This document shows positions 17,033-56,915 of a stretch of 64,000 bases of DNA, piece after piece. Origin of the DNA: Candidatus Kaiserbacteria bacterium. GTDB lineage: Bacteria > Patescibacteriota > Minisyncoccia > Phycocordibacterales > UBA918. Below the pieces are notes generated by a model. It did no database searches, had not been told where the DNA came from, and saw only the letters and a program-made list of their open reading frames with translations. Made by a program: the position numbers and the translations under genes. How positions within the stretch are numbered: position 1 is the first letter of the stretch; each line of letters opens with the position of its first letter. The stretch covers positions 985,015 through 1,049,014 of the forward strand of contig CP064968.1 of the NCBI GenBank assembly GCA_016699245.1, given 5' to 3'.

Positions 17033-18049
17033 ATGAAGATACTCATCACAACACAAGCGGTAGATAAAAATGACCCAATTCTGGGTTTCTTTCACGGATG
17101 GTTATTAGAGTTTGCAAAATATTTTGAACGTGTTGAGGTGATTTGTTTGCGGGAAGGAGTGCATACATTACCCGCGCACGTACACGTACACTCATTGGGG
17201 AAAGAAAAGGGGGTGAGTTATATTCGGTATCTCTCGAGACTTTTTTACTCTGCATGGACTCTGCGTTCTGAGTACGATGTGGTTTTTTCGCATATGAATC
17301 CGCACTACATTGTGCTGTGTGGGTGGCTATGGAGACTCCTTGGGAAACCGATGTTTTTCTGGCGTAACCATGCGCGGATGAATATGCTGACGCGTGTCGC
17401 GGCGCGCTTCGCGCGCCGCGTCTTTTATACCTCACCCTTAGCCTGTACGCGCGTGTTTCCGCACGCGCTTCAGATGCCTGTCGGGATTAATACCGAGGTG
17501 TTTCAGCCCATGGTGGGAAAGGTACCTAAAGAAAAGTCCCTCCTTTTCTTTGGACGTCTGTCTCCCGTAAAGCGCCCCGAACTTTTTATTGCAGCTGCAA
17601 ATATGCTTTCTGAATATACGGTGGATGTATACGGTGATGTACAAAATGCAAACGGTGAGTATGGTAATGCCTTACGCAAAAGCGCAGGTAAACACATTAC
17701 GTTCCATGACGCCGTTACCAACCATGAAGCTCCCGCGATTTATAGCACTCATGAGATTTATGTTAATCTAACCCCAGAAGGAAGTATGGATAAGACAGTT
17801 CTTGAGGCGGCAGCGTGTGGCGCTTTGGTGCTTGTGACTAATACCTCATTTAAAGGCATGTTGCCAGACCTGAGTATACTTTCTCATGATTCTGCTGAAG
17901 GTGTACGTGACGGTGTATTGCGACTCAGTGCACTTTCAGAGTCAGAAAAAAACGAGTATCGCACCCAACTACAGAAGATGGTACGTGAGCAACATTCGCT
18001 TTCAAAATTAGTGGGATTATTACAAGAACAATTTACACAAACAACATGA
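17033..18049 (+). CDS. GT-B (GT4-like) glycosyltransferase
   Basis: MKILITTQAVDKNDPILGFFHGW N-terminus and ..FFGRLSPVKRPELF..EAAACGALVLVTN.. C-terminal motif. Confidence 0.7.
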   Translation: MKILITTQAVDKNDPILGFFHGWLLEFAKYFERVEVICLREGVHTLPAHVHVHSLGKEKGVSYIRYLSRLFYSAWTLRSEYDVVFSHMNPHYIVLCGWLWRLLGKPMFFWRNHARMNMLTRVAARFARRVFYTSPLACTRVFPHALQMPVGINTEVFQPMVGKVPKEKSLLFFGRLSPVKRPELFIAAANMLSEYTVDVYGDVQNANGEYGNALRKSAGKHITFHDAVTNHEAPAIYSTHEIYVNLTPEGSMDKTVLEAAACGALVLVTNTSFKGMLPDLSILSHDSAEGVRDGVLRLSALSESEKNEYRTQLQKMVREQHSLSKLVGLLQEQFTQTT

Positions 18050-18885
18050 TTGACTTCATAGGAATAGGTGCACAGCGGTCGGGGACATCATGGGTGTATG
18101 CGTGCCTCTATGAGCATCCTGAGATTTGTATTCCCATTAAAGAAATTCATTTCTTCAGCCGTCCCCGATATGAAAAGGGTATAGCGTGGTACGAAAATAA
18201 TTTTGCAAAATGTGATGCAGGAAAAAAGTGTGGAGAGTTCTCTACCTCATATCTGTATTCCGATATTACCGCGACGCGCATTCATGAGCACTATCCTGAT
18301 ATAAAAATAATTGCGATTTTGCGCAACCCCATCGATCGCGCGCTTTCGCAATATGGTAATGCTATCAAGGGTGGGGAAATTCCTGAGTCTATGCCCTTTA
18401 CGGAATATTACACCACTGAAAAAAGTGTCCTTGAACAAGGACTCTATGCAAAACAACTCGCTCCATACTATGAGCACTTCGACCCATCGCAGATGCTCGT
18501 GCTCATCTACGAAGATAACAAAAATGACCCCGAAGCGTTTATAAAAAAAATATATGCATTCCTTGGGGTGAGTACTGATTTTGTTCCGAGTATGCTCCAT
18601 GAGTCTATCAATGTGACTCGTGTGCCCAAAAATATAGCCCTTGAGAAAAATATGCACCTATTCTCCGAATTTCTACGTAAGAGTGGGCTCGACCGACTGG
18701 TGCACATTATACGTCGCCTCGGAATTCCTGATTTGGTACGGCGTTTCAACACAAAACCTCCAAAAAAGGAAGAGGAACCGACATTTGACAGAACTGGCCT
18801 TGCGACATATTTCCGTGATGATGCTATGCAACTTTCGAATATTCTTGGCCGCGACCTCGTGACCGAATGGGGACTTCATGAGTAA
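18046..18885 (+). CDS. PAPS-dependent sulfotransferase family protein
   Basis: 5'-PSB-like loop ..GIGAQRSGTSW.. at the N-terminus and the 3'-PB region ..ILRNPIDRALSQY.. are characteristic of the Sulfotransfer family. ATGA overlap with the upstream GT. Confidence 0.75.
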   Translation: MIDFIGIGAQRSGTSWVYACLYEHPEICIPIKEIHFFSRPRYEKGIAWYENNFAKCDAGKKCGEFSTSYLYSDITATRIHEHYPDIKIIAILRNPIDRALSQYGNAIKGGEIPESMPFTEYYTTEKSVLEQGLYAKQLAPYYEHFDPSQMLVLIYEDNKNDPEAFIKKIYAFLGVSTDFVPSMLHESINVTRVPKNIALEKNMHLFSEFLRKSGLDRLVHIIRRLGIPDLVRRFNTKPPKKEEEPTFDRTGLATYFRDDAMQLSNILGRDLVTEWGLHE

Positions 18886-18894
18886 TATAGAGAA

Positions 18895-19704
18895 ATGAAA
18901 CAACTACTTCGTGATACGTATATTGCACTTGCCCACATAACGGGAGTTTCATGGCTGTATCGTGCACATGTGCGCACAAAGGGTCCTTTGGTGCGTGTGA
19001 TTGTCTTCCATGACATTGAGGACAGAGAATGGTTTGCGGAGAGTATCAGGACTCTTTGTACGCACTGCCACATGCTCACACCTGAAGAATTTACTGCCGG
19101 GAATTTTGATACGAAGCGAATAAACATACTCGTCACCTTTGATGATGGCTACGCTTCGTGGGTGGATGTATGCCTTCCCGCGCTTTTAGAATATAACGTG
19201 AAGGCGCTTTTTTTCGTCAATTCAGGGCTCCTTGATGCACAAAATAAAGAAGAGCAAGAGACCTTTGTGCGAGAGAGACTTCTGCTCACAAAGCCACACC
19301 GTATCCTTGACTGGGAAGGTGCGCGCACACTTTTGCGTGCGGGCCACACCATAGGTGGCCATACACGTACACACATGCGTCTCAGTGAATTACCTGTGGC
19401 AGAGCAGGAGGAAGAAATAAAGGGCGACAAGGTACGTCTCAGTACTATGCTCGGCACGAGCGCTACAGCTATTGCGTATCCCTTTGGCAATCAGGGCGAT
19501 TATACAGAAGACACGGCGCGCCTTATGAGCGAAGCCGGCTACACTCACGCATTCACAACCGAGGGTGTCTTTGCTGATATGCGTACTCCATACGCAATCT
19601 CTCGCCTTTGTATTCCTGATAGTCTTCCACCCACGACACTCCGCAGGTGGGGAGAGGGTGGATACGACCTATACGGTATACTGAAGAAACTATGTGCGCG
19701 ATAA
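18895..19704 (+). CDS. polysaccharide deacetylase (NodB homology / CE4)
   Basis: ..ILVTFDDGYASW.. and ..GHTIGGHTRTH.. NodB-domain metal/catalytic motifs. Confidence 0.8.
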   Translation: MKQLLRDTYIALAHITGVSWLYRAHVRTKGPLVRVIVFHDIEDREWFAESIRTLCTHCHMLTPEEFTAGNFDTKRINILVTFDDGYASWVDVCLPALLEYNVKALFFVNSGLLDAQNKEEQETFVRERLLLTKPHRILDWEGARTLLRAGHTIGGHTRTHMRLSELPVAEQEEEIKGDKVRLSTMLGTSATAIAYPFGNQGDYTEDTARLMSEAGYTHAFTTEGVFADMRTPYAISRLCIPDSLPPTTLRRWGEGGYDLYGILKKLCAR

Positions 19705-21560
19705 ACGGCATTACTAAAAAAGATGAGGCGCTTGTAACAAAAATGAATGAGCGCACGAAGCACCGTGGCCCTGATGGCTCTTCGGTGTATCAAAGTGGCA
19801 ACATTACCCTTGGCCATAATCGCCTTGCGATTATCGATACCTCCCACGCTTCCGATCAGCCGATGCAGAGCAATGACGAACGCTATACCATTGTCTTTAA
19901 TGGTGAGATATATAACTACCGTGAACTCCGTGAAGCGTTGCGTGCACACTATGATTTTAAGACAGAGGGAGATACTGAAGTGCTTCTCGCAGCATACGCT
20001 ACGTGGGGAAGGGAGATGTTCCCGCGCCTACGGGGCATTTTTGCATTCGCGCTTTGGGACAAGGAGACAGAAACACTTTTCCTCGCACGTGACCACATGG
20101 GTGTGAAGCCACTCTATTATACGGAGCGAGACGGAGTACTCACGTTCTCTTCCGAACTCCCCGCAGTCTTGCTTTCTGTCCCTTCACCTACACTCAATAT
20201 GGAAAGTGTGGGATTTTATCTCAGTATGGAATATGTACCTGCGCCTCAGACACTCGTAGAAGGTGTGTACAAACTCGAAGCAGGGCAGGCGCTTATCTGG
20301 AAAGCGGGTGCATACACGACATATTCATTTCTTCAGCCAGTACCAGAGAAAAAAACAGTATCACATGAGGATGTGTACGAGACGATCCAAAAAGCGGTGG
20401 AGCGGCAAATGGTGTCCGACCGGCCTATAGGAGCATATCTTTCAGGAGGGTTTGACTCGAGTATTGTGGTGCATCATATGGCACAATTTTCTCCGCATAC
20501 TCGCACATACTCGGTAGACTTTGAAGCGGTGCGGGGAGAGGAATCTGAAGCGTCAAAGTTTAATGCTGATGCGATACTTGCAAAAGAGACTGGAAAGTTT
20601 TTTGGTACCGAACACAAGACACTCACGATTACCCTTGATGCAGTACGAAACTCACTTGAGCAAGTACTTTCCTCGATGAGTGAACCGGTAGCCAACTCTA
20701 CGGCAGTGACACAGTATCTCCTCAGCGACTTTGTGCGTAAGGACGGCACAATTGTGGTCTTGGGTGGCGATGGTGGTGATGAACTCTTTGGGGGGTATAC
20801 ACGTCATCGTATCGCAATGGGGGCGTACCTCTATCAAACACTTCCGCTTCCTCTACAACATCTCGGAGCGCGGATGAGCCCACGTGTGGGGAAACTTGCG
20901 ACGCCGTTTGGTACTTCACTCCACAGAGCGCTCATGGTAAAAGATGAAAAGAAAATTCGCCCGTTTCTTTCTCGTGATCTAGGTATCAATGCGAGCACTA
21001 CAGAATTTTTTAATGCGCAGTATGCAAAGGTGGGGAATACACAGCACCCACTTGATACTTTTATGCAGGTAGACCGCCACACCTGGCTTCCTGATGAGTG
21101 CTTTGTACGCTCTGACTATGCTTCTATGGCGCACGGCATTGAACTGAGGGTGCCCTTTGTCGATACGGATGTAGTCTACATGTCTGATCAAATTTCAGTC
21201 TGGCACAAGACGCTTCCGCACGAGGGAAAACGCATCATTCGCCACACATATAAAAAGTATCTTCCTCCACATCTCTACAATCAGCCAAAACGGGGATGGC
21301 TTTCTCCTGCAGCTAAGTGGTTTCGCGACCCTGTCATCAATGTATTTATGCGGGACACATTTTCCTCTCCGTATTACAATGGCCTCGATAGCCTTTTTGA
21401 TTGGGAGGCAGTACAGAGGCTTCTTTCTGACCATGTTGAAAAGCGGGGCTATTACCTGTATCCTCTTTGGAACATCCTGGTGCTCCAGGTGTGGGCAAGG
21501 GCACACGGCGTGCGTATAGATGAGTATCAAAAAACTTTACTGGGTAGACTACAGTTATAA
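19692..21560 (+). CDS. asparagine synthase (glutamine-hydrolysing) family amidotransferase, WbpS-like
   Basis: MC(A)INGI N-terminal nucleophile Cys2. ..HRGPDGS.. and ..LGHNRLAIID.. GATase-II motifs. PP-loop ..YLSGGFDSS.. in the synthetase domain. Start set at the Met-Cys. Confidence 0.85.
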   Translation: MCAINGITKKDEALVTKMNERTKHRGPDGSSVYQSGNITLGHNRLAIIDTSHASDQPMQSNDERYTIVFNGEIYNYRELREALRAHYDFKTEGDTEVLLAAYATWGREMFPRLRGIFAFALWDKETETLFLARDHMGVKPLYYTERDGVLTFSSELPAVLLSVPSPTLNMESVGFYLSMEYVPAPQTLVEGVYKLEAGQALIWKAGAYTTYSFLQPVPEKKTVSHEDVYETIQKAVERQMVSDRPIGAYLSGGFDSSIVVHHMAQFSPHTRTYSVDFEAVRGEESEASKFNADAILAKETGKFFGTEHKTLTITLDAVRNSLEQVLSSMSEPVANSTAVTQYLLSDFVRKDGTIVVLGGDGGDELFGGYTRHRIAMGAYLYQTLPLPLQHLGARMSPRVGKLATPFGTSLHRALMVKDEKKIRPFLSRDLGINASTTEFFNAQYAKVGNTQHPLDTFMQVDRHTWLPDECFVRSDYASMAHGIELRVPFVDTDVVYMSDQISVWHKTLPHEGKRIIRHTYKKYLPPHLYNQPKRGWLSPAAKWFRDPVINVFMRDTFSSPYYNGLDSLFDWEAVQRLLSDHVEKRGYYLYPLWNILVLQVWARAHGVRIDEYQKTLLGRLQL

Positions 21561-21562
21561 CA

Positions 21563-22414
21563 GTGTGTATGAAAATAGGATTTATTGGACAGGGTTATGT
21601 GGGGAAAAATATTGCAAATGACATTGAGTCGAAGGGACATACCGTGGTGCGGTATGCTCTTGAGAAAGAATACGTAGGGAATAAGGATGCACTCAAGGAG
21701 TGCGATATCACGTTTATTGCGGTACCTACTCCTACTACACCTGAGGGGTTTGATTACAGTATCATCGAGAAAAGCCTTTCTCTTCTTCGAGACGGAAGTA
21801 TTGTTGTAATAAAGTCGACTCTTCTTCCGGGCACAACGCGAAAACTGCAAGATACTTTTCCAAGTTTGGTCATACTTTTTTCTCCAGAATTTCTCTGTGA
21901 AGCAACTGCAGCGCACGATGCAGCACATCCTATTGTGAATGTCGTAGGAATATTCCCCGATTCTGCAGGACACCGCACAGCAGGCGAGACCGTCATGCGC
22001 ATACTCCCGAAGAGCCAGCATGAATTTATTATTCCTATTGAATCAGCGGAACTCTTTAAATACATTCACAACATTCATGGCTTCATGCGGGTGATTTTTT
22101 CAAATCTTTGCTATGACCTTGGAGAAAAGTTGGGGGTTGACTGGGTACATGTGGAGCAGATTATGAATGTCGATCCCATGATGTCGCCCTACTACAATGC
22201 ACCTCTTCACAAGAGCGGCCGTGGCGCAGGAGGACATTGTTTTATCAAGGATATGGCCGCATTTAGCCTCCTCTACCGTGAACTCTGTGTGAATGATACG
22301 AGTGGTGTCGAACTCCTCAAACTCATGGAGAAGAAAAATCTGGAACTCCTGGCTTCAACGCAGAAGGATCAGGATTTGGTGAATGGGGTATATGGTGATA
22401 GGACGCCTCATTAG
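21563..22414 (+). CDS. UDP-glucose/GDP-mannose dehydrogenase family protein, short form (283 aa)
   Basis: MKIGFIGQGYVGK NAD-binding start and catalytic-Cys motif ..GRGAGGHCFIKD... The ORF ends ~55 aa later, so the usual C-terminal UDP-binding domain seems absent. Confidence 0.6.
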   Translation: MCMKIGFIGQGYVGKNIANDIESKGHTVVRYALEKEYVGNKDALKECDITFIAVPTPTTPEGFDYSIIEKSLSLLRDGSIVVIKSTLLPGTTRKLQDTFPSLVILFSPEFLCEATAAHDAAHPIVNVVGIFPDSAGHRTAGETVMRILPKSQHEFIIPIESAELFKYIHNIHGFMRVIFSNLCYDLGEKLGVDWVHVEQIMNVDPMMSPYYNAPLHKSGRGAGGHCFIKDMAAFSLLYRELCVNDTSGVELLKLMEKKNLELLASTQKDQDLVNGVYGDRTPH

Positions 22415-22474
22415 TTTAGTATGCTGTATACGGTGTATACTGCATGGGTTTGAATACAAGTAATTATGTAAATC

Positions 22475-23761
22475 ATGAATAGTCAAAAGAAAATAGAGGC
22501 TACAATACATCAAGAAATAAAGTCGTATTTTAAAGACCTTCCTAAAAATCATTTTAAGAATCCAAATTGGATTGCTCCTATTGGAGGTGGATACTATGAT
22601 GATAAAGAGATTACAGCAGTAATGAAGTGTTATATTCATGGTTCTCTTTCTACACAAAAGCCCGTCATAGAATTTGAAAATAAGTTTTGTGCGTACACAG
22701 GAAATACTCATGGCATCGCCGTAAATTCAGGAACATCGGCAAACATTCTTGCGTTTAATGCACTCCTCGAAAATGGTGATTTAAAAAAGGGAGACGAAGT
22801 TGCGGTTCCCGCGACGACATTCATAAGTGTCGTGACGCCCATTATTCAGCTCGGATTAAAGCCTGTGTATATTGATATTGATCCACAGACACTCAATATG
22901 GACATAGGAGCGCTTGAAGAAGCACTCCAAAAAAAGAATAAAATCAAATGTGTCATTATCGTGCACACACTTGGATGTCCTGCTGATATGGAACGGCTTC
23001 TCCCAATTGCAAAAAAATATAAGCTCAAAGTAATTGAAGATTGTTGCGAGGCACATGGGGCAAAAATAAAAGGGAAGGTTGTTGGAAGTTTCGGAGATAT
23101 TGCGACATGGAGTTTTTATGTCGCACACAACATGACGACCGCAGAAGGAGGAATGATTCAGACGAATTCAGATACGTACAATACAATTCTCAGAGACTTA
23201 CGTGAATTTGGAAGACGAAGAATCCATACGGGGCCACGGTACAGTTATTCATCGGGGAAACTTAAAGACTTTGATGAGCGGTATACCTTCCATAAAATTG
23301 GCTGGAATTTCAGAATGGCTGACGCCCCCGCTGCATTTGGTATAGAACAGTTAAAAAAACTCCCTGCAATGAATGCGATTCGTATCAAGAATGCAGAATA
23401 TTTGAGTAAGCAACTCGCGGGACAGAGCGATATATTCCATTTCCCACCAACATCAGATGGAACATTTGTGCATGCGTACTATACGTTCCCAATTGTCATT
23501 AAGGACACTAAGCGTGTCGTCCGTAAAGAATTTGCACGATATCTGGAAGAGCACAAAATCGAGACACGAGCAATTATGTGCGGTACACTCCCCGATCAAC
23601 CTGGTCTCGTAAAAGCCCCGGGACGAAGTTTTGGCGCTTTGAAAAATAGTCGGTATATTAGGGACAACGCGATATCAATTGGATGTCACCCACTCCTCGG
23701 GCGGAAAGAGTTGGATTATATTATTGAGACCATAAAAAACTACATTACCCATGTCAGCTAA
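22475..23761 (+). CDS. DegT/DnrJ/EryC1/StrS-family PLP-dependent sugar aminotransferase/dehydratase (long RfbH/ColD-like form, 428 aa)
   Basis: ..GIAVNSGTSANILAF.. and the overall layout match the family. The length matches the RfbH/3-dehydrase subgroup better than the ~370-aa aminotransferases. Confidence 0.75.
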   Translation: MNSQKKIEATIHQEIKSYFKDLPKNHFKNPNWIAPIGGGYYDDKEITAVMKCYIHGSLSTQKPVIEFENKFCAYTGNTHGIAVNSGTSANILAFNALLENGDLKKGDEVAVPATTFISVVTPIIQLGLKPVYIDIDPQTLNMDIGALEEALQKKNKIKCVIIVHTLGCPADMERLLPIAKKYKLKVIEDCCEAHGAKIKGKVVGSFGDIATWSFYVAHNMTTAEGGMIQTNSDTYNTILRDLREFGRRRIHTGPRYSYSSGKLKDFDERYTFHKIGWNFRMADAPAAFGIEQLKKLPAMNAIRIKNAEYLSKQLAGQSDIFHFPPTSDGTFVHAYYTFPIVIKDTKRVVRKEFARYLEEHKIETRAIMCGTLPDQPGLVKAPGRSFGALKNSRYIRDNAISIGCHPLLGRKELDYIIETIKNYITHVS

Positions 23762-24758
23762 AAATATACTCGTTACCGGAGGCACCGGCGCTATTGGTTC
23801 GAATCTTATTAAAAGACTCATTGAAATTGATGATTTTGACACCCTCGTCATTCTTGATAACAACTCATCGGGTCATGCTGATAACGCGCACTCACACCCT
23901 AAAATTGTGTATGTGTATGGAGATATTTGTGATGACGAAGTGCTGAGTAAGGTATTTGAACACAACATTACGCATGTCTATCACTTGGCAGCAAACTTCG
24001 CCAACCAACTCTCGGTTGATTTTCCGGTGAAAGACCTCACCACCAATGGTATTGGTATTGTGAAGTTACTTGAAAAGTCAGTTGCGCATAAGGTAGAAAA
24101 ATTTTTGTACTCATCATCTTCGTGTGTATACCGACCAACCGGAGAGCCATTTACTGAGACGAGCCCTCTCATGCTTTCGACTCCGTATGCGATTACGAAG
24201 TTACTTTCAGAGCATTATGTTACGTTCTTTAGTAAGTTCAAAGGACTCCCTGCAGTTGTCGTTCGTTACTTTAGTAGTTATGGTCCGGGAGATTACCCGG
24301 GAAAATTCAGAAGTGTTATTCCAAATTTCTTATGGAGTGCAATGCATGGTATGCCTCTTACCATAACCGGTACCGGCGAAGAGACACGACCATTTACCTA
24401 CGTCGGCGATATTGTGGAGGGAACTATTGCGGCGATGGAAAAGAGTCAACATAAAGTCCTTAAAAACTACTATACACACCCGCTTGAGGCAGATGACAAT
24501 CTTGTGTACAACATCGGGACCGAGGTGGCGACAACGATGTCAGATCTTGCACAAAAGGTGAATGCACTCTGTGGTAATAAATCAGAGATTGTGTATGTAC
24601 CAAGACGTGATTGGGATGTGGTATTACATCGACCTGTCGACGCATCAAAAGCTCGCAAGGAATTGAATTTTGAAGCACAGGTATCACTCGATGAAGGACT
24701 CAGGAAGACACTCGACTGGTTTGAATCGGACGGATTCAATAAAAACCATGTGGTCTAA
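23751..24758 (+). CDS. NAD-dependent epimerase/dehydratase (SDR)
   Basis: ..ILVTGGTGAIGSNL.. Rossmann motif. YxxxK-type SDR fold. Confidence 0.8.
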   Translation: MSAKNILVTGGTGAIGSNLIKRLIEIDDFDTLVILDNNSSGHADNAHSHPKIVYVYGDICDDEVLSKVFEHNITHVYHLAANFANQLSVDFPVKDLTTNGIGIVKLLEKSVAHKVEKFLYSSSSCVYRPTGEPFTETSPLMLSTPYAITKLLSEHYVTFFSKFKGLPAVVVRYFSSYGPGDYPGKFRSVIPNFLWSAMHGMPLTITGTGEETRPFTYVGDIVEGTIAAMEKSQHKVLKNYYTHPLEADDNLVYNIGTEVATTMSDLAQKVNALCGNKSEIVYVPRRDWDVVLHRPVDASKARKELNFEAQVSLDEGLRKTLDWFESDGFNKNHVV

Positions 24759-24781
24759 GGGGCTGAGTTTGCAATAAATGT

Positions 24782-26565: not shown

Positions 26566-26568
26566 TAT

Positions 26569-27663: not shown

Positions 27664-27679
27664 TACAGTACTCTGACAT

Positions 27680-28714: not shown

Positions 28715-28718
28715 AATA

Positions 28719-29876: not shown

Positions 29877-29913
29877 TTTTAAATTTATTATTTCTTATGA
29901 TACATTTGACGCT

Positions 29914-30960: not shown

Positions 30961-31016
30961 TATTCTTTGCATAACTAAAAATCTATTAGCAATATGCACA
31001 TAACTACGTAAAGAAT

Positions 31017-47890: not shown

Positions 47891-47892
47891 GT

Positions 47893-49749
47893 ATGTGCGG
47901 TATTGCCGGTTATTGGGGGACAGGTTCGCGGGCTATCCTTGAGGAGATGAATAATACGCTCACGCACCGAGGTCCTGATGATGGAGGGGTGCTTCGAGAT
48001 TGGCCCTGTGGGTCTCGCACAACGGAGGTTGTCTATCGTTGACCTTATCGCCCGCGGGGCATCAACCTATGTGTACAAAGAAGGGAGATGTATCACTTGT
48101 GTTTAATGGTGAAATATATAATTACCAAGAACTCAGGGAAGAATTTTTAGGATCATACGAATTTAGGGGAAGTAGTGATACGGAAGTACTGCTCCATCTC
48201 TATGAAGAATTGGGGGAAACTTTTCTTACAAAAATTCAGGGGATGTTTGCGTTAGCCCTTTATGATACGAAGAAAGGCATACTCCTTCTTGCGCGAGACC
48301 ATGTCGGGAAAAAACCATTGTACTGGACTCACCATGACAGCACATTTATTTTTGGTTCCGAACTCAAGGCACTCAGGAAGCATCCTTCGTGTCCAAAGAA
48401 AATAAGCACCACCGCACTCGCACAGTACTTGGTGTATGAGTATGTTCCTGGACCAGCGACTATTTATGAAAACGTGAGTAAACTTGATCCGGGGACATAT
48501 CTTATCTATGACGGGAAAAATGTGACGCAGGGGACGTTTGGCAGGATTATCTCGACACAGGGAGCATACACAAAGAATTTTGAAAGTGCGAAAGACGAAC
48601 TCCATGCGCTTCTTCAGACTGCGGTACAAAAACGCATGGTCGCGGATGTTCCTGTAGGCGTCTTTCTCAGTGGTGGTCTTGATTCAAGTACGATTGCATA
48701 CTTTGCACAAAAATCATCCACAAACCAGATTAAGACATTTTCAATCGGCTTCAAGGATACAAGTTTTGATGAGCGTGAGTATGCTCGGGAAGTGGCAACA
48801 TTTCTTGGGACTGACCACCATGAGTACGTCGTGGGTCCAGAAGAATTACTCAAAGTGATTCACGAGATACCCCAGGTACTCGATGAACCAATCGCCGACT
48901 CTTCAATCATTCCATCACTCATATTGTCTCGGTACACGAGTAAGGAGGTGAAGGTGGTGCTTGGGGGAGATGGGTCCGATGAAATTTTCTTTGGGTACGG
49001 CACATTTTTTGCACACCGTGTGGGACTTTGGTATGAAAAAATACCAAAGTGTATTACGCGCGTAATACGTTATGTGGTGGAACGACTTCCTGTCTCACAT
49101 GCGTACATGAGTTTTGATTTTAAGGCAAAGAAATTTATCTCAGGTTTTCAGTACGACAAGGGCTCGCCGTAATACCTACTGGCTCAGTGCGTTTACACCC
49201 GAGGAACTGAAGTCAATTTGTAACTTTGACGTTGATGACGCGCATATTCTTGCCCCCACAGATGCGCTGTACACAGAAGGCACGAATTTTTGGGATAGCG
49301 TGCAGATGGAGTACATGAAAGGATATTTAGTAGAAGATATTTTGGTAAAAACAGACAGAGCAGGGATGCGACATGGTCTCGAAGTCCGTGCGCCGTTTTT
49401 GGATATTGCGCTCGTGAACTTTGCGCTCACACTTCCGCTCACGTACAAGCTGAAGGGGCGTACAGAAAAGTACATCCTTAAGGAACTGATGAAGTCATAT
49501 CTACCGGCTCGTATTGTGGGAAGAAAGAAAAAAGGATTTGGTATTCCTATTGGTGCATGGATTCGGGGAGAACTCCGGGATATATTCACCAAAACGCTTT
49601 TAGAGGGGAAATTGGTACAAAGTGGTCTGTTCAAGCGCGAGGGGCTTGCTATACTGCTTCAATCGCACCAGGATGGTGTATCTGATAACAGGAAGAAACT
49701 TTGGACATTATTTGTGTTAGCACTTTGGATGGAGGAATGGTATGAATAA
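47893..49749 (+). CDS. second asparagine synthase-family amidotransferase, interrupted by three single-nt insertions (~48004, ~48031, ~49161)
   Basis: MCGIAGYWG..HRGPDDGG | PVGLAQRRLSIVDL | SPAGHQPM..YNY.. lie in three successive frames. PP-loop ..FLSGGLDSS.. is present. The C-terminal part ..ARRNTYWLSAF.. continues in a +1 frame. Confidence 0.75.
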
Positions 49750-49764
49750 AAATGAACAAAAAAC

Positions 49765-50282
49765 CAACCTGGCCGGGGGGAAAAAAAAAAAGAGGGATGG
49801 AAAATGGGGTTGGTTTCGGTCCCCCAACCCCCAGGGGGGGGGGGGGGCCGGGGTGGGGGGCGGGGTGTGAAATATATTTTGATTTTTTTGTTGGGTTTGG
49901 TGTGGGTGTGTTTGTGGGAAAAACCTTGGTTGGTGTTGTGGGATTTTGGTTGGATGTTAAAAAAAAAAAAAAAACCGGGAGGGTCCCCCCCCCAGTGGGG
50001 GGGGGTTTCCTGGGGGGGCAGGGGGGGGGAGGGGAGGGATTTTTTTTTTCTTTTCCTTTTTTATAAAAAAAACCACAAAAAGAAGTTTTGGGGGGGGTTT
50101 TTTTTTTTTTTTCCGGGGTGGGTGGGGGGGGGGTTGTTTTTTCCCCCTTTTTCCCCCTGGGGGGGGGGGAGGGAAATCCCTTTTAAAAAAAATAAAAAAT
50201 TTTTTTTGGGGGGTGGGGGGGCCTTCCCCCCCTGCAGGTGGAATTGGGGGTTGGGGGTTGGGGGGGGGGGGGGGGGGGGGAG
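49765..50282. repeat. ~520-bp homopolymer-saturated low-complexity tract (G-runs up to ~28, A16, T17, C-runs)
   Basis: Read directly. The composition is completely unlike the flanking sequence. ORF-track 'proteins' here are poly-Gly/Lys/Phe translations of the tract. Contains CCTGCAGG. Confidence 0.9.
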
Positions 50283-50314
50283 TTGTTTTTAAGAAAGTCT
50301 AATAACACGTACAC

Positions 50315-51081
50315 ATGTCATCACAAAATAGATTTGGATACGAATGGGAAAAATATTCTTGGGTAACCCGGGATTACGAGAAGCAGTTTTTGAATTGGAC
50401 AAACCCCATGCAACCTTCCGACTGGGTAGGGAAGAAGGTGCTTGATGCTGGCTGTGGTATGGGTAGAAATAGTTTGTGGCCAATGAAGTTTGGTGCTGCC
50501 TCCGTCACTGCATTTGATTTTGATGAACGCTCTGTAGCACGAGCAAAAGAGACACTCAAAGAATATCCGACTGCGACGTGCACTTTCAAAGTATCTATGA
50601 TATTACGTGGAAGAATGAGTTTGATGTTGCATTCTCAATTGGCGTGATTCACCATTTACGAGACCCAAAAAAAGCACTCGCCAATATGATAGACGCGCTT
50701 AAATCAGGGGGAAAACTTTTGGTATGGGTATATGGGTATGAGGGGAATGAGTGGATAGTGCGGTATGTCGATCCTGTACGTATTCATATCACGTCAAAAC
50801 TGCCGCTCCCCCTTGTGCACCTCCTCTCATATTTTTGTTCTGTTCCGTTGTATGCGTTTGTAAAAATATGCAAAGGTCCGAGCGCGTATCTCAAGCAACT
50901 CTCGACATTCAATTTTTGGCATGTGCACAGTATTGTGTTCGACCAACTCATTCCTGATGTTGCACATTACTGGAAAAAAGAAGAAGTGCGGGCACTGGTC
51001 GCAGACCTCCCCCTTACGGATATAACTGTTTCTCCACCACCAAATAAATCGGGGTGGATTTTGGTGGGAATTAAAATGTAG
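50315..51081 (+). CDS. class I SAM-dependent methyltransferase, interrupted by a 1-nt deletion near 50578
   Basis: ..VLDAGCGMGRNS.. motif I in the first ORF and ..FDVAFSIGVIHHLRDP.. motif II/III in the second, in the -1 frame. Confidence 0.7.
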
Positions 51082-51122
51082 GCTGATTTCTTGTTTTAAA
51101 TTAATTGTGAGATAGAAGGCAG

Positions 51123-51557
51123 TTGAAAGATATGAAGAAATTACTTAAGTCCTATAGAAATTTACAATTAAAATATGCCTTACTTATTAGACAGATAATG
51201 AAGTTTTCGCTTACTGGTTTGATTGCAATATTTGTATTACTTACGTCACTGTTTTTTTTCACTGAGATTATTGGGATATGGTATTTATTCTCTGTTGTCC
51301 TTGCAAATATTTGTACATTGATAGTGAATTTTTTAGTTCAAAAATATTTTGTCTTTTCTAATTATGATACAAATGTTGCTAGAAAACAATTTATATGGTT
51401 TATCGTCTTGTCGGTGGGTTATCTTATCGTAAATACATTACTTATGTATCTTTGGGTAACTGTCATAAAATGGCCATATTTGTATGCACAAACACTTAAT
51501 GTTATTCTTCTAGCCATGATCACGTTCTACATTAACCGAAAATATATTTTTGTTTAG
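51123..51557 (+). CDS. GtrA-family small membrane protein (polyprenol-P-sugar flippase-like)
   Basis: ~140 aa with 4 TM segments. ..FSLTGLIAIFV..ANICTLIVNFLVQKYFVF.. is the typical GtrA-like pattern. Confidence 0.7.
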   Translation: MKDMKKLLKSYRNLQLKYALLIRQIMKFSLTGLIAIFVLLTSLFFFTEIIGIWYLFSVVLANICTLIVNFLVQKYFVFSNYDTNVARKQFIWFIVLSVGYLIVNTLLMYLWVTVIKWPYLYAQTLNVILLAMITFYINRKYIFV

Positions 51558-51583
51558 ATGTATAGAGAATCTATTTTGATATT

Positions 51584-53353
51584 ATGAATGGTCCAATTCA
51601 GAGACTGTGGATGGTTGTAGCAAGACATTCTTTGATGCTTGCGTTGGGATTTGCTATGACCCTTTTTGTTGTTTCACCAAATATACGGTCTTGGAATACA
51701 ATCGGATCTGAAAATTTCAGAGGAGTGTACCCCGTGTTTACTGATGATGAGATTACGTATCAAGCTCGAATAAAGGAAGTGACAGAAGGGAAATATTCAA
51801 TAGGAAATCCTTATATAAAAGAGCATATGGATGATGCTTTTATAATGCCACCGATTGCTGAATTAATTATGGCATGTGGAGTCTGGCTTACGGGTGCATC
51901 TGTACCTTTCATAGCAGCGTTCGGAGATTTCGTTATTGTGTTTATTGATTTCATACTTATATATACTTTTTTTCTCATAGTTTCAGGTGGTTATCGTACA
52001 ATTGCACTACTGTATACGGTCATATTCGTTGTATGTATACTTGCTTCATTAGGAAGACCTATCAGTCCACAGTTAAATTATGTTTTCCTATTTGCAGGGT
52101 TGATACCCATTGCTCTTATTTATTTCCGGGAAAGTATTTATTCTAGACGATGGCATGTTTCTGCCGGTCTTATTACCGGTATAACATGTTTTATTTCACC
52201 TTATTTTTTTACAACACTTTTTGTTTTGTACTCATCACTCTATCTAGCAAAAGTATGTATCAACAAGAAATCTCGATTATTTACTCAAGACCTATTATAT
52301 TTTTCAGTTTCTTTTTTTCCCTTTTTACTCGTTTTTTTATATTTCCAATACAAAGCATCCCAAGGTATCTCATACGCAGAGACCGCACTACGCTATGGAA
52401 TTATGTATACACATTTGCCAGGGAGTTTTACCAACGTGGCTTTGGCAGTACTTGCTGGTGGAGTAATTGTTCTAGCAAGTAGAAAACTCAGTCTGCAGGA
52501 GCGATTCTTTTGCATGAGTGGAGTAATAACTATATTTATTCTCAACTGGCAAAATATTATAACTGGAGTTTCGCTTCAGTTTGCTCCTCACTACCAATTT
52601 ACTACCATTCCAATCATTTTTTCAGTACTTATGATTATCCATCAGCGTTTGATCACTAATAATGAAGTCGGAAGAATCAGTAGTAAGATTATTGGAGTGG
52701 CATTGCTTTTATTAATGTGCATTATTGTGTACCATCAGCGAAATGAATTTATGCACATCGCTCGGATGCCATACTCAGAAGTGGAGCTCGTCGCTATGCA
52801 GAAAAAGATGGACGTCTTTTCATGGTTACGAACTAACACACAGTCAGATTCAGTCGTGTATTCGCTTGGTGGGATGTATGATTTTACTCTACCTGTTTAT
52901 ACTGAAAATAAAGTGTATTATAATTTCTATATTGCGCTTTATCCAGCTTCAGACCATGAGGTTGAGAATCGCTGGTTGGCACAACATTTGTTCGACCTCA
53001 ACATGAGCTCGAGCACAATTCAAGAAGCGCATCGAGAGTATTGGGGAAATCGTTACATTGACAGTTACGCATCTGCTGAGAACCGGAAGAAGATTATTGC
53101 TTTAGTTACGCTCAATGAGTATGTTCCTGGAGAACGTATTTCAGATAGTCTTAGTGAGAGAATGTACAGTCGATGGATTGATGTTAAATCCCAACCACCA
53201 ATAGATGTATTGAGACAATATGAAATTGATTATATTTTGCTCAGTAAGGAGTACCAATATTATGACGAAACTAAAAAAAGATTGGAGCAAATAGATGAAT
53301 TATCTATTGTTGCCGATTTTAATGGTGAACTCTTGTATGCGTTACAAAAGTAA
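51584..53353 (+). CDS. large polytopic membrane protein, probable GT-C-type (GtrC/ArnT-like) glycosyltransferase
   Basis: ~12 TM N-terminal domain plus a C-terminal soluble domain. The position immediately after GtrA fits a GtrABC-type periplasmic-face glycosylation module. No sequence motif confirmed. Confidence 0.4.
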   Translation: MNGPIQRLWMVVARHSLMLALGFAMTLFVVSPNIRSWNTIGSENFRGVYPVFTDDEITYQARIKEVTEGKYSIGNPYIKEHMDDAFIMPPIAELIMACGVWLTGASVPFIAAFGDFVIVFIDFILIYTFFLIVSGGYRTIALLYTVIFVVCILASLGRPISPQLNYVFLFAGLIPIALIYFRESIYSRRWHVSAGLITGITCFISPYFFTTLFVLYSSLYLAKVCINKKSRLFTQDLLYFSVSFFPFLLVFLYFQYKASQGISYAETALRYGIMYTHLPGSFTNVALAVLAGGVIVLASRKLSLQERFFCMSGVITIFILNWQNIITGVSLQFAPHYQFTTIPIIFSVLMIIHQRLITNNEVGRISSKIIGVALLLLMCIIVYHQRNEFMHIARMPYSEVELVAMQKKMDVFSWLRTNTQSDSVVYSLGGMYDFTLPVYTENKVYYNFYIALYPASDHEVENRWLAQHLFDLNMSSSTIQEAHREYWGNRYIDSYASAENRKKIIALVTLNEYVPGERISDSLSERMYSRWIDVKSQPPIDVLRQYEIDYILLSKEYQYYDETKKRLEQIDELSIVADFNGELLYALQK

Positions 53354-53419
53354 CATGATAAAATATGAGCCCATTCGGACTTGCAACCAGATCATATTTA
53401 GCAATAGTCGAAATATATA

Positions 53420-54417: not shown

Positions 54418-54605
54418 TACTGATTTCTCGAGTTGCGTTGAGGATTTGACCGGAGCAATTAAGAGGGAATTGAGTATTGACAATATAACTGTTGTATATA
54501 CAATGGTTATATTACCTGTCCTGTTCACAGTTGTGAAAGTGGATGCATAGGTATCGATTTTTAGGCAGGAGAGAATAGGGATACACTCATAATTATTAGA
54601 TAACT

Positions 54606-54887
54606 TTGTATAGGATGAAAACAGTACTCAATGTGAAGACGGACAAAGATGTGAAGGAGAGAGCGCAGGCACTCGCCAAACACCTCGGTATACCACTCTC
54701 AATAGTGGTAAATGCTTATCTGAAGGATTTTATATATTCGGGAGAATTTCGCGTGACACGCGAGCCAGAGTTGCGTCCTGAGGTGAAGAAAGAACTTAAG
54801 AAAATGTACGCAGATGCGCGTGCAGGCAAAAATATGTCGCCCGCATTCACGAACGTTGATGATGCTATAGCATGGCTTAAGAAATAA
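54606..54887 (+). CDS. relB: type II antitoxin, RelB/DinJ family
   Basis: ..LNVKTDKDVKERAQALAKHLGIPLSIVVNAYLKDFI.. matches the RelB/DinJ ribbon-helix-helix antitoxin pattern. The true start may be 54615. Confidence 0.7.
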   Translation: MYRMKTVLNVKTDKDVKERAQALAKHLGIPLSIVVNAYLKDFIYSGEFRVTREPELRPEVKKELKKMYADARAGKNMSPAFTNVDDAIAWLKK

Positions 54888-54891
54888 TGGT

Positions 54892-55146
54892 ATGCAGGTA
54901 ACGTTTCATAAAAAGTTTAAAAAGCAACTTAAGAAACTTCCTCCTCACATCCAGAAAACGTTTTTTGAGCGTCTGAGTGTACTCATTGCATCCCCACATG
55001 ATCCTCTTCTCAATGTACACAGACTCACTGGGGACATGGATACGTTTTTGAGTATGAATGTAACTGGTGATTATCGAGCGCACTTTACATACGAAGAGTA
55101 TACGATTGAGTTTTATAAAATTGGCACACACAGCGAGTTGTATTGA
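54892..55146 (+). CDS. relE: type II toxin, RelE/ParE family mRNA interferase
   Basis: 84 aa, starts 5 nt after the antitoxin stop. C-terminal ..GDYRAHFTY..IGTHSELY is the RelE/ParE signature. Confidence 0.7.
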   Translation: MQVTFHKKFKKQLKKLPPHIQKTFFERLSVLIASPHDPLLNVHRLTGDMDTFLSMNVTGDYRAHFTYEEYTIEFYKIGTHSELY

Positions 55147-55259
55147 GGACACGTGAACCAAGGTCTTCTTGGGTAGGCGTGTCGTCGCGCTACTTTTTTG
55201 ATTTTGGGGATGTTATAGTATTTGTTCAGTACTATATCAGTCACTAATTTTGTTCATCC

Positions 55260-56915
55260 ATGAGTTCACCAGATTTGCAGCACGATATTCTTACCCTCCC
55301 ACGCCTCAACCTCAAAGGGCGCGTACTCCACGACCTTGAGGTGATGCTCCTTGGGGGCTTTGAGCCCGTCGTGGGCTTTATGGATGAGGCGGACTATAAC
55401 GGTGTGGTGGAGTCGATGCGTCTCGCTGATGGAACCCTTTTCCCGATACCTATCGTGCTCGATGTGTCGGCACAGAATTCGTATCAGGTAGGGGAGCGCA
55501 TACTCCTTTGTGATGCGTTTGGAAACCCGCTTGCGGTCATGGCGATTACCTCACGCTTTTCACCCGACAAGACAAAGGAAGCGCTTCGCGTGTATGGCAC
55601 CGAGGACAGAATGCACCCCGGCGTGCAGTACCTTTTTGATGAAATGGAGGACACCTACCTCGGGGGTACGGTGACAAAGATTGCACTCCCTGAACGAAAC
55701 GACTTTAAACAATTCCGCAAAACACCCACAGAACTCAAAGCGCTTTTCAAAGAAAAAGGATGGGATAAGGTCGTGGGCTTTCAAACACGCAATCCCATGC
55801 ATCGCGCCCACTTTGAACTTGTAAAGCGTGCAAGTGAAAAAATAGGAGCACCGGTACTCGTGCATCCTGTTGTGGGGATGACAAAGCCAGGAGACATAGA
55901 CTACGTCACCCGCGTGCGCACATACAATGTGGTGTGCAACACCTACGGAAAGGATTTTACGCATCTTTCACTCTTGCCCCTTGCGATGCGTATGGCGGGC
56001 CCGCGTGAGGCGGTGTGGCACTCGATCATCCGCAAAAACTACGGATGTACGCACTTCATAGTGGGGCGTGACCACGCGGGCCCGGGCAAGGGAAGTGATG
56101 GAAAGGATTTTTATGGTCCGTATGATGCGCGTACGCTCGCACTCACCCATGCTGATGAGGTAGGTATTATTATTGTTGACTCGGACGAACTCGCGTACTC
56201 AAAGACACGAGAAAAGTATGTGTCGGCACATGAGGTAGAAGAGGGGGAAGATATTGCCAATATCTCGGGTACTGAGTTTCGTCGACGCTTGCGTGAGAAT
56301 GAGGAGATACCTGAATGGTTTTCCTTTAAGGAGAGTATCGCAATTTTGCGCGAGAGTGTGAAGCGGGATACGCGCCCCGGCGTGACGTTCTTTTTCACGG
56401 GACTTTCATGCTCGGGCAAGTCGACGCTTGCGCAACTTCTGTATGCACGGCTTCAAGAACTGCAGGATAGAGATGTAACCTTCCTCGATGGCGATATTAT
56501 TCGTGAGCACCTTTCGAAGGGCTTAGGCTTCTCAAAGGAGGATAGAGATGAAAACGTAAAGCGTGTAGGCTTTGTAGCCCGTGAGGTGATAAAGCACGGA
56601 GGAATCGTTATTTCAGCACTTATTGCACCGTACAGGGACGCGCGGAGACACGTACGTACTATGGTGGAGCAGTATGGGGAATTCATTGAGATATTTGTGG
56701 ATACACCAGTGGATGTATGTGCAACACGTGATACGAAGGGCCTGTATGAAAAAGCACGTCAAGGACTTATTAAAAACTTTACGGGAGTTGACGACCCGTA
56801 TGAGGTACCGGAAGCACCAGAATTGGTTGCAAAAACTGTAGAAAGCACGCCTGAAGAGATTGTAGAAAATATTATTGAACATCTCTATACACGCGGCGTT
56901 TTGGTGCGAAGGTAG
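55260..56915 (+). CDS. sat/cysC: bifunctional sulfate adenylyltransferase / adenylyl-sulfate kinase (PAPS synthase-like)
   Basis: ATP-sulfurylase motifs ..GFQTRNPMHRAHFEL.. and ..GRDHAGPG... C-terminal APS-kinase P-loop ..FFFTGLSCSGKSTLA.. and ..ISALIAPY.. Confidence 0.85.
   Translation: MSSPDLQHDILTLPRLNLKGRVLHDLEVMLLGGFEPVVGFMDEADYNGVVESMRLADGTLFPIPIVLDVSAQNSYQVGERILLCDAFGNPLAVMAITSRFSPDKTKEALRVYGTEDRMHPGVQYLFDEMEDTYLGGTVTKIALPERNDFKQFRKTPTELKALFKEKGWDKVVGFQTRNPMHRAHFELVKRASEKIGAPVLVHPVVGMTKPGDIDYVTRVRTYNVVCNTYGKDFTHLSLLPLAMRMAGPREAVWHSIIRKNYGCTHFIVGRDHAGPGKGSDGKDFYGPYDARTLALTHADEVGIIIVDSDELAYSKTREKYVSAHEVEEGEDIANISGTEFRRRLRENEEIPEWFSFKESIAILRESVKRDTRPGVTFFFTGLSCSGKSTLAQLLYARLQELQDRDVTFLDGDIIREHLSKGLGFSKEDRDENVKRVGFVAREVIKHGGIVISALIAPYRDARRHVRTMVEQYGEFIEIFVDTPVDVCATRDTKGLYEKARQGLIKNFTGVDDPYEVPEAPELVAKTVESTPEEIVENIIEHLYTRGVLVRR

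Follow-up and report, generated by a model that had tools for sequence, protein, structure and literature searches.

Genes for a candidate sulfated cell-surface glycan in a conserved genomic island of Kaiserbacteria and related Patescibacteria

Might a member of the Patescibacteria attach sulfate to the glycans of its surface? We considered this question for a 64-kb stretch of the genome of a Candidatus Kaiserbacteria bacterium (contig CP064968.1, positions 985,015 to 1,049,014; the whole stretch is called the window, and coordinates given without an accession count from its first letter). The window carries a glycan island of the cell-envelope type, about 50 kb long and equivalent to about 5% of the genome (a contig of 1,054,716 bp). 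The island consists of three parts: a conserved core with a sulfotransferase gene (18046–18885), a variable middle, and a conserved end with the gene for a synthase of 3′-phosphoadenosine 5′-phosphosulfate (PAPS; 55260–56915) and that for a Wzy_C/TPR protein. This layout is conserved in about 25 related species of Patescibacteria. From these genes we predict that the island directs the PAPS-dependent sulfation of a cell-surface glycan, and we put the probability of this reading at roughly 0.7. A sulfated glycan had been proposed in a preliminary description of the same DNA; the idea is now supported, as a candidate, by the PAPS-binding residues of the sulfotransferase, by the lack of nearby reduction genes, and by the synteny of the sulfotransferase and PAPS synthase genes in at least five species.

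The names of both products are already public, in that the annotation lists QQR64909.1 as ‘sulfotransferase’ and QQR64947.1 as ‘bifunctional sulfate adenylyltransferase/adenylylsulfate kinase’. In the open-access and bioRxiv literature on the candidate phyla radiation (CPR), Patescibacteria and Parcubacteria, we found no account of a sulfotransferase/PAPS locus, and one genome survey of the CPR names sat as one of few sulfur genes (PMC12153355). What is new, and apparently undescribed, is the conserved sulfotransferase–PAPS synthase system with its synteny.

The sulfotransferase and the PAPS synthase

The prediction is built on two genes:

18046–18885, forward strand: predicted PAPS-dependent carbohydrate-type sulfotransferase (HS 3-OST/NDST-like clade), 279 aa, identical to QQR64909.1

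55260–56915, forward strand: bifunctional ATP sulfurylase/adenosine 5′-phosphosulfate (APS) kinase, that is, a PAPS synthase of the Sat-CysC fusion type, 551 aa, identical to QQR64947.1

The product of the first gene matches two Pfam families well above their cut-offs, Sulfotransfer_1 (PF00685; 2.2e-20, 73.6 bits against a cut-off of 22) and Sulfotransfer_3 (PF13469; 4.6e-19, 70 bits against a cut-off of 27), and no named family for it was found in NCBIfam. Its homologues amounted to 617 matches among 5.8 billion proteins; the 120 listed of these, its own 100% entry aside, have 57–87% identity over 75–100% of the query and are nearly all full-length proteins of 275–285 aa. The wider family comprised 987 representatives (clusters at 50% identity) at E ≤ 1e-30 and 18,371 at E ≤ 1e-10 in an exhaustive HMMER scan, so that enzymes of this type are as such no rarity among environmental bacteria.

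We aligned 31 of the listed homologues (57–87% identity). The 5′-phosphosulfate-binding (5′-PSB) loop, G8-A-Q-R11-S-G-T14-S15-W16, has G8, A9, Q10, T14, S15 and W16 invariant, and position 11 is occupied by Lys in 19 of the 31 sequences and by Arg in 12, the window protein being one of the latter. Residues R93, N94, P95, R98, A99 and S101 are likewise invariant in the 3′-phosphate-binding (3′-PB) motif, R93-N-P-I-D-R98-A-L-S101, as are K32, E33, H35, F36, F37, S38 and R39 in the segment K32-E33-I-H35-F-F-S-R. When the protein was aligned by HMMER to the human heparan sulfate (HS) 3-O-sulfotransferase HS 3-OST-3, the 5′-PSB loop lay opposite GVKKGGT, the 3′-PB motif opposite VVRDPVTRAIS, and KEIHFFSR opposite AEPHFFDR; in 3-OSTs, the Glu of the ‘EPHFF’ segment, which is aligned with E33, is the general base. 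The Lys of the ‘EKTPSY’ segment of 3-OST-3, which we take to be Lys215, aligns with a Phe in E64-F65-S-T-S-Y, and this Phe is nearly invariant among the 31 sequences.

Searches of the PDB by sequence returned 3RNL (5.4e-26, residues 4–271) and HS 3-OST-3 (3e-18), together with 3-OST-1, 3-OST-5 and the N-deacetylase/N-sulfotransferase NDST1 (1e-10). An AF2 model made from the alignment (pLDDT 87.8, pTM 0.79) gave 118 PDB matches in Foldseek at E ≤ 1e-3, the best 50 of which are all sulfotransferases or enzymes of the sulfotransferase fold. The top 21 neighbours are without exception 3RNL, 3-OSTs or NDST1 (TMq 0.62–0.69), with cytosolic SULTs, TPSTs and others well behind (TMq 0.34–0.48). Sequence and model together point to an intact enzyme, predicted to be PAPS-dependent and to belong to the HS 3-OST/NDST-like clade, within which N- and O-sulfotransferases are not told apart by sequence. 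No transmembrane (TM) or signal-like segment was found in the protein, which is therefore expected to act in the cytoplasm.

The second gene encodes PUA_2, ATP-sulfurylase (9.6e-83) and APS_kinase (1.7e-59) domains of Pfam, and its product scores 789.6 bits over residues 5–548 against the NCBIfam equivalog NF004040, for which the cut-off is 669. The translation contains QTRNPMHRAH and VGRDHAGPG in the sulfurylase part and GLSCSGKST, LDGD and FTGVDDPYE in the kinase part; we take QxRNPxHxxH and GRDHAG, and the P-loop GxxxxGKS/T, DGD and FTGxDxxYE, to be the catalytic motifs of the respective domains. The PAPS synthase thus appears intact and is predicted to be competent. Sat-CysC fusions of the NF004040 family are widespread in bacteria (at least 8000 matches at E ≤ 1e-50) and have the same PUA/sulfurylase/kinase order and intact motifs; only the genomic role differs, since the window gene flanks a glycan island beside a Wzy_C gene. 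All 120 homologue clusters listed for the window enzyme are 71–95% identical to it, and those that are named come from Pacebacteria or Paceibacterota.

A Pfam scan of about 65 open reading frames (ORFs), which covered the full 64-kb window, detected no PAPS_reduct, sulfite reductase, Inositol_P (CysQ), DHH or sulfate-permease domain. In three other species, the called genes up to 10 kb to either side of the PAPS synthase likewise include no reductase, CysQ or permease family. The preliminary description had thus correctly recognised a Sulfotransfer-family protein, a fused ATP sulfurylase/APS kinase and, over the range just given, a neighbourhood free of sulfite and sulfide reduction genes; the PAPS-binding residues that it had left to be checked are present throughout the alignment, with Lys or Arg at position 11.

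Conservation of the locus among Patescibacteria

According to the ORF list, the sulfotransferase and the neighbouring glycan genes belong to an operon that extends over 13267–32415 on a single strand. The ATG of the sulfotransferase gene overlaps the TGA of the glycosyltransferase (GT) gene upstream, GT-B type, 17033–18049 (ATGA; acaacATGAttgac at 18046–18049), and the DNA across this stop/start junction, at 18041–18054, reads ACAACATGATTGAC. The translational coupling to the upstream GT noted in the preliminary description is therefore confirmed, but its ‘uninterrupted run of GT4 genes’ has to be amended: four GT-B genes lie upstream (13267–18049), but genes for a CE4 deacetylase, an AsnB-like protein, a UDP-glucose dehydrogenase (UDPG-DH)-like protein, an aminotransferase and an epimerase follow downstream until 24782. 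The locus is an unbroken glycan operon on one strand, and its genes are not all of the GT4 kind.

We scanned one genome per GTDB species and obtained 46 loci, 27 of which contain a member of the sulfotransferase family with at least 41% identity; synteny was determined by tblastn of all window proteins against the scanned loci, and the core block was counted over the 27 family loci. These come almost entirely from Paceibacterota, Kaiserbacteria, Magasanikbacteria, Patescibacteria or (probably loosely labelled) Saccharibacteria, the exceptions being bacterium UASB270 and one short ‘Ignavibacteria’ contig. The conserved order is as follows: a kinase-like gene and a gene resembling the N-terminal half of a GT (both on the reverse strand), ATP-grasp, PHP, deacetylase-like (reverse strand), three GT4 genes, GT, sulfotransferase, CE4, AsnB-like, short UDPG-DH-like, and GT4. 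A GT homologue ends 7–363 nt ahead of the sulfotransferase in 21 of the 27 loci, and CE4 starts 0–38 nt past it in 20. An extra GT gene intervenes in two loci (L021 and L022), and CE4 was not found only in L025 and in L011, the latter having just 807 bp of downstream sequence. The 4-bp overlap of GT and sulfotransferase recurs in L010 and L052.

By coordinates, at least five species have the sulfotransferase and PAPS synthase genes on one contig with order and orientation conserved, at spacings of 4–36 kb:

JAIPIB010000001.1: sulfotransferase ends at 101,142, PAPS synthase starts at 124,511, spacing 23 kb

JBKJIT010000001.1: sulfotransferase ends at 132,522, PAPS synthase starts at 157,925, spacing 25 kb

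CAZBMV010000004.1: spacing about 24 kb

L010: spacing 4 kb

Window: sulfotransferase ends at 18,885, PAPS synthase starts at 55,260, spacing 36 kb

Both genes also occur on five more contigs of at least 40 kb (1,031,779, 83,090, 66,986, 41,979 and 40,632 bp), which were matched by size in bp or by record name. Size matching misled once, for P0079 and P0179, whose contigs of 3,049 bp are not the same; a contig was therefore counted only if it measured at least 40 kb or if its record name confirmed it. Among the 15 contigs of at least 60 kb with a close PAPS-synthase homologue, 11 also hold the sulfotransferase or the core PHP gene (matched by identity or size). Downstream of the PAPS synthase, genes for Wzy_C/TPR, MurB, SecA, holin-like, VTT, Obg and GatB proteins always follow, the Wzy_C/TPR gene being its constant immediate neighbour; the order PAPS synthase–Wzy_C/TPR–MurB–SecA was observed in L047–L051, L058, L059, L064 (up to the contig end), L068 and L072. 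In most related loci, a Wzx flippase gene lies 0.1–8 kb upstream of the PAPS synthase on the opposite strand.

In L011 and L025, both of Patescibacteria, the sulfotransferase homologue (54% and 41% identity) stands in a different, unrecognised context that lacks the core block. Outside the CPR, UASB270 (L021) encodes a homologue of 47% identity whose neighbours are GT and CE4 genes, and this hints at horizontal transfer of the module.

In the window, the genes that accompany the sulfotransferase and the PAPS synthase are these:

10069–11277, forward strand: ATP-grasp ligase-like protein, first core gene (Pfam ATPgrasp_Ter, 5.7e-11)

11428–12228, forward strand: PHP-family metal phosphoesterase, identical to QQR64903.1 (‘PHP domain-containing protein’)

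12200–13204, reverse strand: divergent polysaccharide-deacetylase-like protein (Pfam Polysacc_deac_1, 3.3e-4, under the cut-off)

13267–14373, 14377–15495 and 15512–16951, forward strand: three GT4 glycosyltransferases (Pfam Glycos_transf_1/Glyco_trans_4_4)

17033–18049, forward strand: GT-B glycosyltransferase of the ATGA overlap with the sulfotransferase gene (Pfam Glyco_trans_1_2/1_4)

18895–19704, forward strand: CE4 (NodB-type) polysaccharide N-deacetylase (Pfam Polysacc_deac_1, 7e-23)

19647–21560, forward strand: AsnB-like glutamine amidotransferase (Pfam Asn_synthase/GATase_7)

21563–22414, forward strand: short UDP-glucose/GDP-mannose dehydrogenase-like protein, 283 aa (Pfam UDPG_MGDP_dh_N and central domain only)

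42647–43915, reverse strand: Wzx-type flippase, in the variable low-GC middle (Pfam Polysacc_synt, 2e-22; at least seven TM-like segments)

57026–59245, forward strand: Wzy_C protein of the O-antigen ligase/polymerase/O-OTase type, with 12 TM segments and C-terminal TPRs (Pfam Wzy_C, 7.5e-17, and TPR)

In 15 Patescibacteria loci, homologues of the ATP-grasp protein (31–63% identity) stand at the corresponding place, those of the divergent deacetylase-like protein (49–67%) are syntenic in 15 loci, and the order of the three GT4 genes upstream of the sulfotransferase is kept in about 20. The CE4 protein has TFDDG, HxxxH and YPFG invariant in its alignment; its profile matched 6dq3 (PplD-like), PgaB, an IcaB-like enzyme, PdaA and PgdA in the PDB, and NodB is among its weak NCBIfam matches. 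No TM or signal-like segment was found in it, and both CE4 and the sulfotransferase, lacking such segments, would therefore act in the cytoplasm, before flipping. The AsnB-like protein, syntenic in 12 loci, also matches the NCBIfam XrtA/PEP-CTERM exopolysaccharide amidotransferase, under the cut-off. In the short UDPG-DH-like protein the usual C-terminal domain is missing; because it has the same length of 283 aa in L133 and is 63–88% identical in relatives, it is a native short form, and the equal length in L133 rules out a truncation artefact. A DegT aminotransferase and an epimerase gene come next, and GT4 genes resume at 24782.

The PHP protein deserves separate mention. Its residues H8, H10, E40/H41, E72, H79, H113, D170 and H172 are invariant and constitute the trinuclear-metal ligand set (HxH, E, H, H, DxH), and its homologues carry the JGI label ‘metal-dependent phosphoesterase TrpH’. 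In the PDB, nothing was found with the single sequence and only TM0559 with a profile. The AF2 model (pLDDT 91.6) has as its best Foldseek folds TM0559 (2anu) and BVU_3505, both uncharacterised; RNase AM/TrpH ranks 8th and 12th in this list (TMq 0.43–0.45), and 2yb1 falls outside the top 50. We considered the protein as a 3′,5′-bisphosphate nucleotidase of the PHP family (COG0613, Cv1693/TrpH type), which would dephosphorylate 3′-phosphoadenosine 5′-phosphate (PAP). Given the weak PDB searches and the mid-list rank of RNase AM/TrpH, this is speculation; the protein may be a PAP phosphatase or a sugar-phosphate phosphatase.

Two reverse-strand genes ahead of the core are syntenic in several relatives, and the product of neither belongs to a Pfam family. 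That of 8044–9186 (380 aa) contains the kinase-like motif HxDxxxxN (HTDFVPHN), and that of 9135–9752 (205 aa) resembles the N-terminal half of a GT-B glycosyltransferase.

A possible route to a sulfated glycan and its alternatives

How might these genes act together? We consider that, in the cytoplasm, the Sat-CysC fusion would make PAPS from sulfate and two ATP, and that the sulfotransferase would transfer the sulfuryl group to a sugar residue in an oligosaccharide, nascent or lipid-linked, made by the neighbouring GT4 enzymes. The acceptor would most likely be a hexosamine-type residue, because the relatives of the sulfotransferase suggest so. The cytoplasmic CE4 enzyme could N-deacetylate a HexNAc of the sulfated oligosaccharide unit, which the AsnB-like amidotransferase and the ATP-grasp enzyme might decorate further. 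The finished unit would then be flipped by Wzx and, on the outside, polymerised or ligated to its final carrier by the Wzy_C/TPR protein, giving a negatively charged, sulfated surface glycan. In such a scheme, PAPS would serve sulfation and not cysteine synthesis.

Several observations weigh against this proposal. For the glycans of the Patescibacteria, sulfate esters are a prediction. The Lys of the 5′-PSB loop is replaced by Arg in the window protein and in some of its relatives (12 of the 31 sequences), although Arg at this position is tolerated in animal GlcNAc-6-O-sulfotransferases, and the position of the second active-site Lys of 3-OST-3 is occupied by Phe. Since the search for reductases spanned the window and the loci of three relatives, cysH/cysIJ may lie elsewhere in the 1.05-Mb genome. 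A PAP phosphatase and a sulfate transporter, both of which a working pathway needs, were not identified among the window ORFs with Pfam, nor was an initiating phosphoglycosyltransferase of the WbaP/WecA type; neither Bac_transf nor Glycos_transf_4 (MraY/WecA) is present among the domains of the same ORFs. Sulfotransferase and PAPS synthase are linked by synteny, and the order beside MurB–SecA could be partly historical. Finally, the assembly contains several frameshifts, though both key genes are spared.

A variant of the sulfation reading, possible but in our estimate unlikely, is that CE4 and the sulfotransferase form a split NDST, in which CE4 frees the amine of GlcNAc or GalNAc and the sulfotransferase N-sulfates it, yielding an N-sulfo-hexosamine. 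The tight spacing of CE4 behind the sulfotransferase in 20 of 27 loci would suit such a partnership, as would the place of NDST1 among the closest relatives in sequence and structure; the deacetylase domain of NDST1 is also a metal-dependent polysaccharide deacetylase, an Agd3-like (beta/alpha)7 enzyme with a His-His-Asp set (PMC10864358), and the nearby UDPG-DH-like gene hints at a uronic acid. In the window, the two genes are separate and not fused as in NDST, and the D-D/HxxxH motif set of CE4 is intact. However, 3-OSTs surpass NDST1 as matches of the sulfotransferase (3e-18 against 1e-10, and a higher Foldseek rank), the adjacency of CE4 may only mirror a conserved operon in which the neighbouring GT and AsnB genes are no less constant, and the freed amine could be acylated instead by the ATP-grasp or amidotransferase enzymes. 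Moreover, no heparosan-type synthase was found in the window: neither GT2/GT45 enzymes like KfiA/KfiC nor EXT or PmHS types appeared among its ORFs, the core having only GT4-type, GT9 and GT2 enzymes, and for this reason we do not class the glycan system as heparan-sulfate-like. An extension of the split-NDST idea to Paceibacteria at large, namely a glycosaminoglycan-like, N-sulfated surface glycan made on a lipid-linked hexosamine/uronic-acid unit with island PAPS, the PAP perhaps being recycled by the PHP protein, strikes us as somewhat more doubtful; if true, the heparan-sulfate-like coat of an ultra-small episymbiont could serve host attachment or cation scavenging.

It is similarly doubtful that the PAPS synthase serves assimilatory sulfate reduction with cysH/cysIJ encoded elsewhere, its site at the island edge being coincidental and the sulfotransferase borrowing housekeeping PAPS. 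The wide distribution of NF004040-type fusions, the position of the gene next to the housekeeping genes MurB and SecA, and a reductase search confined to the window and the relatives’ loci would all be compatible with this. Against it, no gene for a reductase or for cysteine synthesis was found in the 64 kb or, in three relatives, up to 10 kb to either side of the synthase; further arguments against it are the near-absence of sulfur-cycle genes besides sat and a few others in the CPR survey (PMC12153355), the co-occurrence with the sulfotransferase or PHP gene on 11 of 15 long contigs, and the invariable position of the synthase directly upstream of the Wzy_C/TPR gene. A quite improbable alternative is an acceptor other than a glycan, such as a lipid, a small metabolite, a peptide or a protein tyrosine, the position in a GT operon being incidental: small-molecule, lipid and tyrosine sulfotransferases do occur in the Sulfotransfer_1/3 superfamily, and the best match, 3RNL, has no assigned substrate, but the close spacing or overlap with GT and CE4 genes is conserved in about 20 species, the characterised close relatives are all glycosaminoglycan enzymes, and the SULT and TPST folds are, as stated above, much more distant (TMq 0.34–0.48). 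Lastly, the frameshifts in at least five window genes and a homopolymer stretch of about 520 bp might suggest that the genes are broken and the pathway inoperative. We consider this extremely unlikely, because the sulfotransferase, CE4, PHP and PAPS synthase are full length and collinear with their homologues, with their invariant residues intact, and because the essential SecA gene is also split, which speaks for sequencing error.

The logic of PAPS-dependent glycan sulfation by a dedicated set of genes has a counterpart in the rhizobia, where the sulfotransferase NodH, PAPS synthesis by NodPQ and the deacetylase NodB act on a GlcNAc-based glycan, the Nod factors. The island likewise pairs a carbohydrate sulfotransferase with a PAPS supply of its own and with a NodB/CE4 deacetylase. 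NodPQ, however, is of the GTPase-coupled CysD/CysN-CysC type; in the window, Sat and CysC are fused in a homomeric enzyme that includes a PUA domain. The Nod product, a lipochitooligosaccharide, is secreted as a signal, whereas the window genes lie in a Wzx/Wzy_C surface-glycan island. PAPS-dependent sulfation of envelope glycoconjugates is also known from the mycobacterial Stf0 enzymes and sulfolipids. By sequence and fold, the closest characterised relatives of the window protein are the animal HS 3-OST-1/3/5 and NDST1, which are PAPS-dependent, have hexosamine acceptors within a polymer, and share with it the 5′-PSB loop, the R…S of the 3′-PB motif and the Glu-x-His element (‘EPHFF’ against ‘KEIHFF’). 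The window protein has 18–24% identity to them and is predicted to be soluble and cytoplasmic, not resident in the Golgi lumen. The best full-length match is 3RNL (27% identity, Foldseek E 3e-15), a structural-genomics entry from Alicyclobacillus acidocaldarius. It shares with the window protein a bacterial branch of the HS-sulfotransferase-like clade and comes from a different phylum; being without a known context or substrate, it contributes no functional information.

Among bacterial envelope systems, the lipopolysaccharide sulfotransferase LpsS of Sinorhizobium meliloti was shown experimentally to use PAPS (Cronan & Keating 2004, as cited in PMC12445080); it is annotated as a member of the Stf0 family and so differs in family from the Sulfotransfer_1/3 HS-like protein of the window. 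More similar in organisation is the cyanobacterial xss cluster for synechan, a Wzx/Wzy-type cluster in which PF00685/PF13469 sulfotransferases occur among many glycosyltransferases; among bacteria, sulfated polysaccharides and polysaccharide clusters containing sulfotransferases were described there as known from cyanobacteria only (PMC8205485). The window locus resembles xss in being a Wzx/Wzy-type polysaccharide cluster with a sulfotransferase of these families. It differs in its occurrence in Patescibacteria, in the PAPS synthase that it carries at the border of the island, in its constant CE4 partner, and in that no genes for a polysaccharide co-polymerase (PCP) or outer-membrane export (OPX) were seen in the locus.

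With genomes of about 1 Mb, Patescibacteria are without most biosynthetic pathways. That a PAPS synthase, which is costly in ATP, and a tightly conserved sulfotransferase operon are kept in so small a genome suggests, therefore, that the sulfated product matters for the lifestyle of these bacteria; it might contribute to surface charge, to host-cell attachment, or to resistance against phages or predators. A conserved locus of this kind in an unrelated, uncultivated phylum would broaden the cyanobacteria-only picture of PMC8205485, and sulfate-specific stains or 35S labelling would offer a handle on CPR envelopes. In addition, surveys that score CPR ‘sat’ as a sulfur-cycling marker (e.g., PMC12153355) may be counting a gene for glycan sulfation.

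Sequence quality and the remainder of the window

At least five genes of the window are split by frameshifts, and the orthologues of each in the relative L072 form one in-frame ORF:

45798/46447 (45798–46893): UDP-GlcNAc 2-epimerase

46945/47465 (46945–47890): GT2 with TM tail

48000/49114 (48000–49749): AsnB(-like) protein

50315/50578 (50315–51081): methyltransferase

60840/62389 (60840–63375): SecA

Because the essential SecA gene is among them, we read the frameshifts as most likely long-read sequencing errors and not as marks of pseudogenes. A decaying island, which the split genes might have indicated, was ruled out on the same ground and by the intact orthologues of L072. Between the AsnB-like and methyltransferase genes, at 49770–50290, there is a homopolymer ‘stutter’ of about 520 bp, made of long G, A, T and C runs; it does not occur in L072, where the orthologous genes are only about 40 bp apart, and it looks like an artefact of long-read basecalling or assembly. 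The sulfotransferase, CE4, PHP and PAPS-synthase genes are without frameshift.

A tRNA scan and an Rfam scan of the window gave no RNA genes, and scans for promoter and terminator consensus sequences gave nothing over background within the operon. The lone strong −35/−10 match, at 54477–54504, is too weak for defining transcription units; it lies upstream of the PAPS synthase and of a toxin–antitoxin (TA) pair:

54606–54887, forward strand: DUF6364-like antitoxin (Pfam, 1.7e-6)

54892–55146, forward strand: ParE/RelE-like toxin (ParE_toxin, 5.2e-6)

The TA pair is situated directly upstream of the PAPS synthase, between it and the variable glycan region. TA genes occur at comparable sites in relatives: in L051, ParE/CopG genes flank the synthase, and in L052 a PemK toxin gene separates the sulfotransferase gene from that for CE4.

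The middle of the island is rich in nucleotide-sugar and methyltransferase genes, and its GC content is 0.36–0.46 against 0.45–0.49 in the flanks; over 20000–54000, a stretch that differs between species, GC falls from about 0.48 to 0.36–0.44. This low-GC middle is consistent with O-antigen-like cassette exchange. The GC skew is positive over nearly the entire window, the forward strand of which holds almost all genes. Upstream of the glycan island, at 3278–5335, lies a gene for a VirD4/TrwB-like coupling-protein ATPase (T4SS-DNA_transf, TraG-D_C).

Within the region 27680–32415, three GDP-mannose-4,6-dehydratase-like paralogues (27680, 29914 and 31342) are interleaved with a GT9 heptosyltransferase-like gene, and a convergent gene for an NDP-hexose C-methyltransferase follows on the reverse strand (32418–33686); together, the paralogues and the C-methyltransferase suggest 6-deoxy or branched sugars in the glycan. 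At 35213–37947, an unusual fusion of a GT2 glycosyltransferase with a zinc alcohol dehydrogenase (615 aa) is followed by an SMP-30/gluconolactonase-like gene. Further along are a gene for a GtrA-like flippase (51123–51557) and one for an 11-TM protein of 589 aa that belongs to no family (51584–53353), which, with the GT2 that carries a TM tail (the three spanning 46945–53353), resemble a GtrABC-type trio for extracytoplasmic glycosylation. The 11-TM protein has a 51%-identical homologue in L047.

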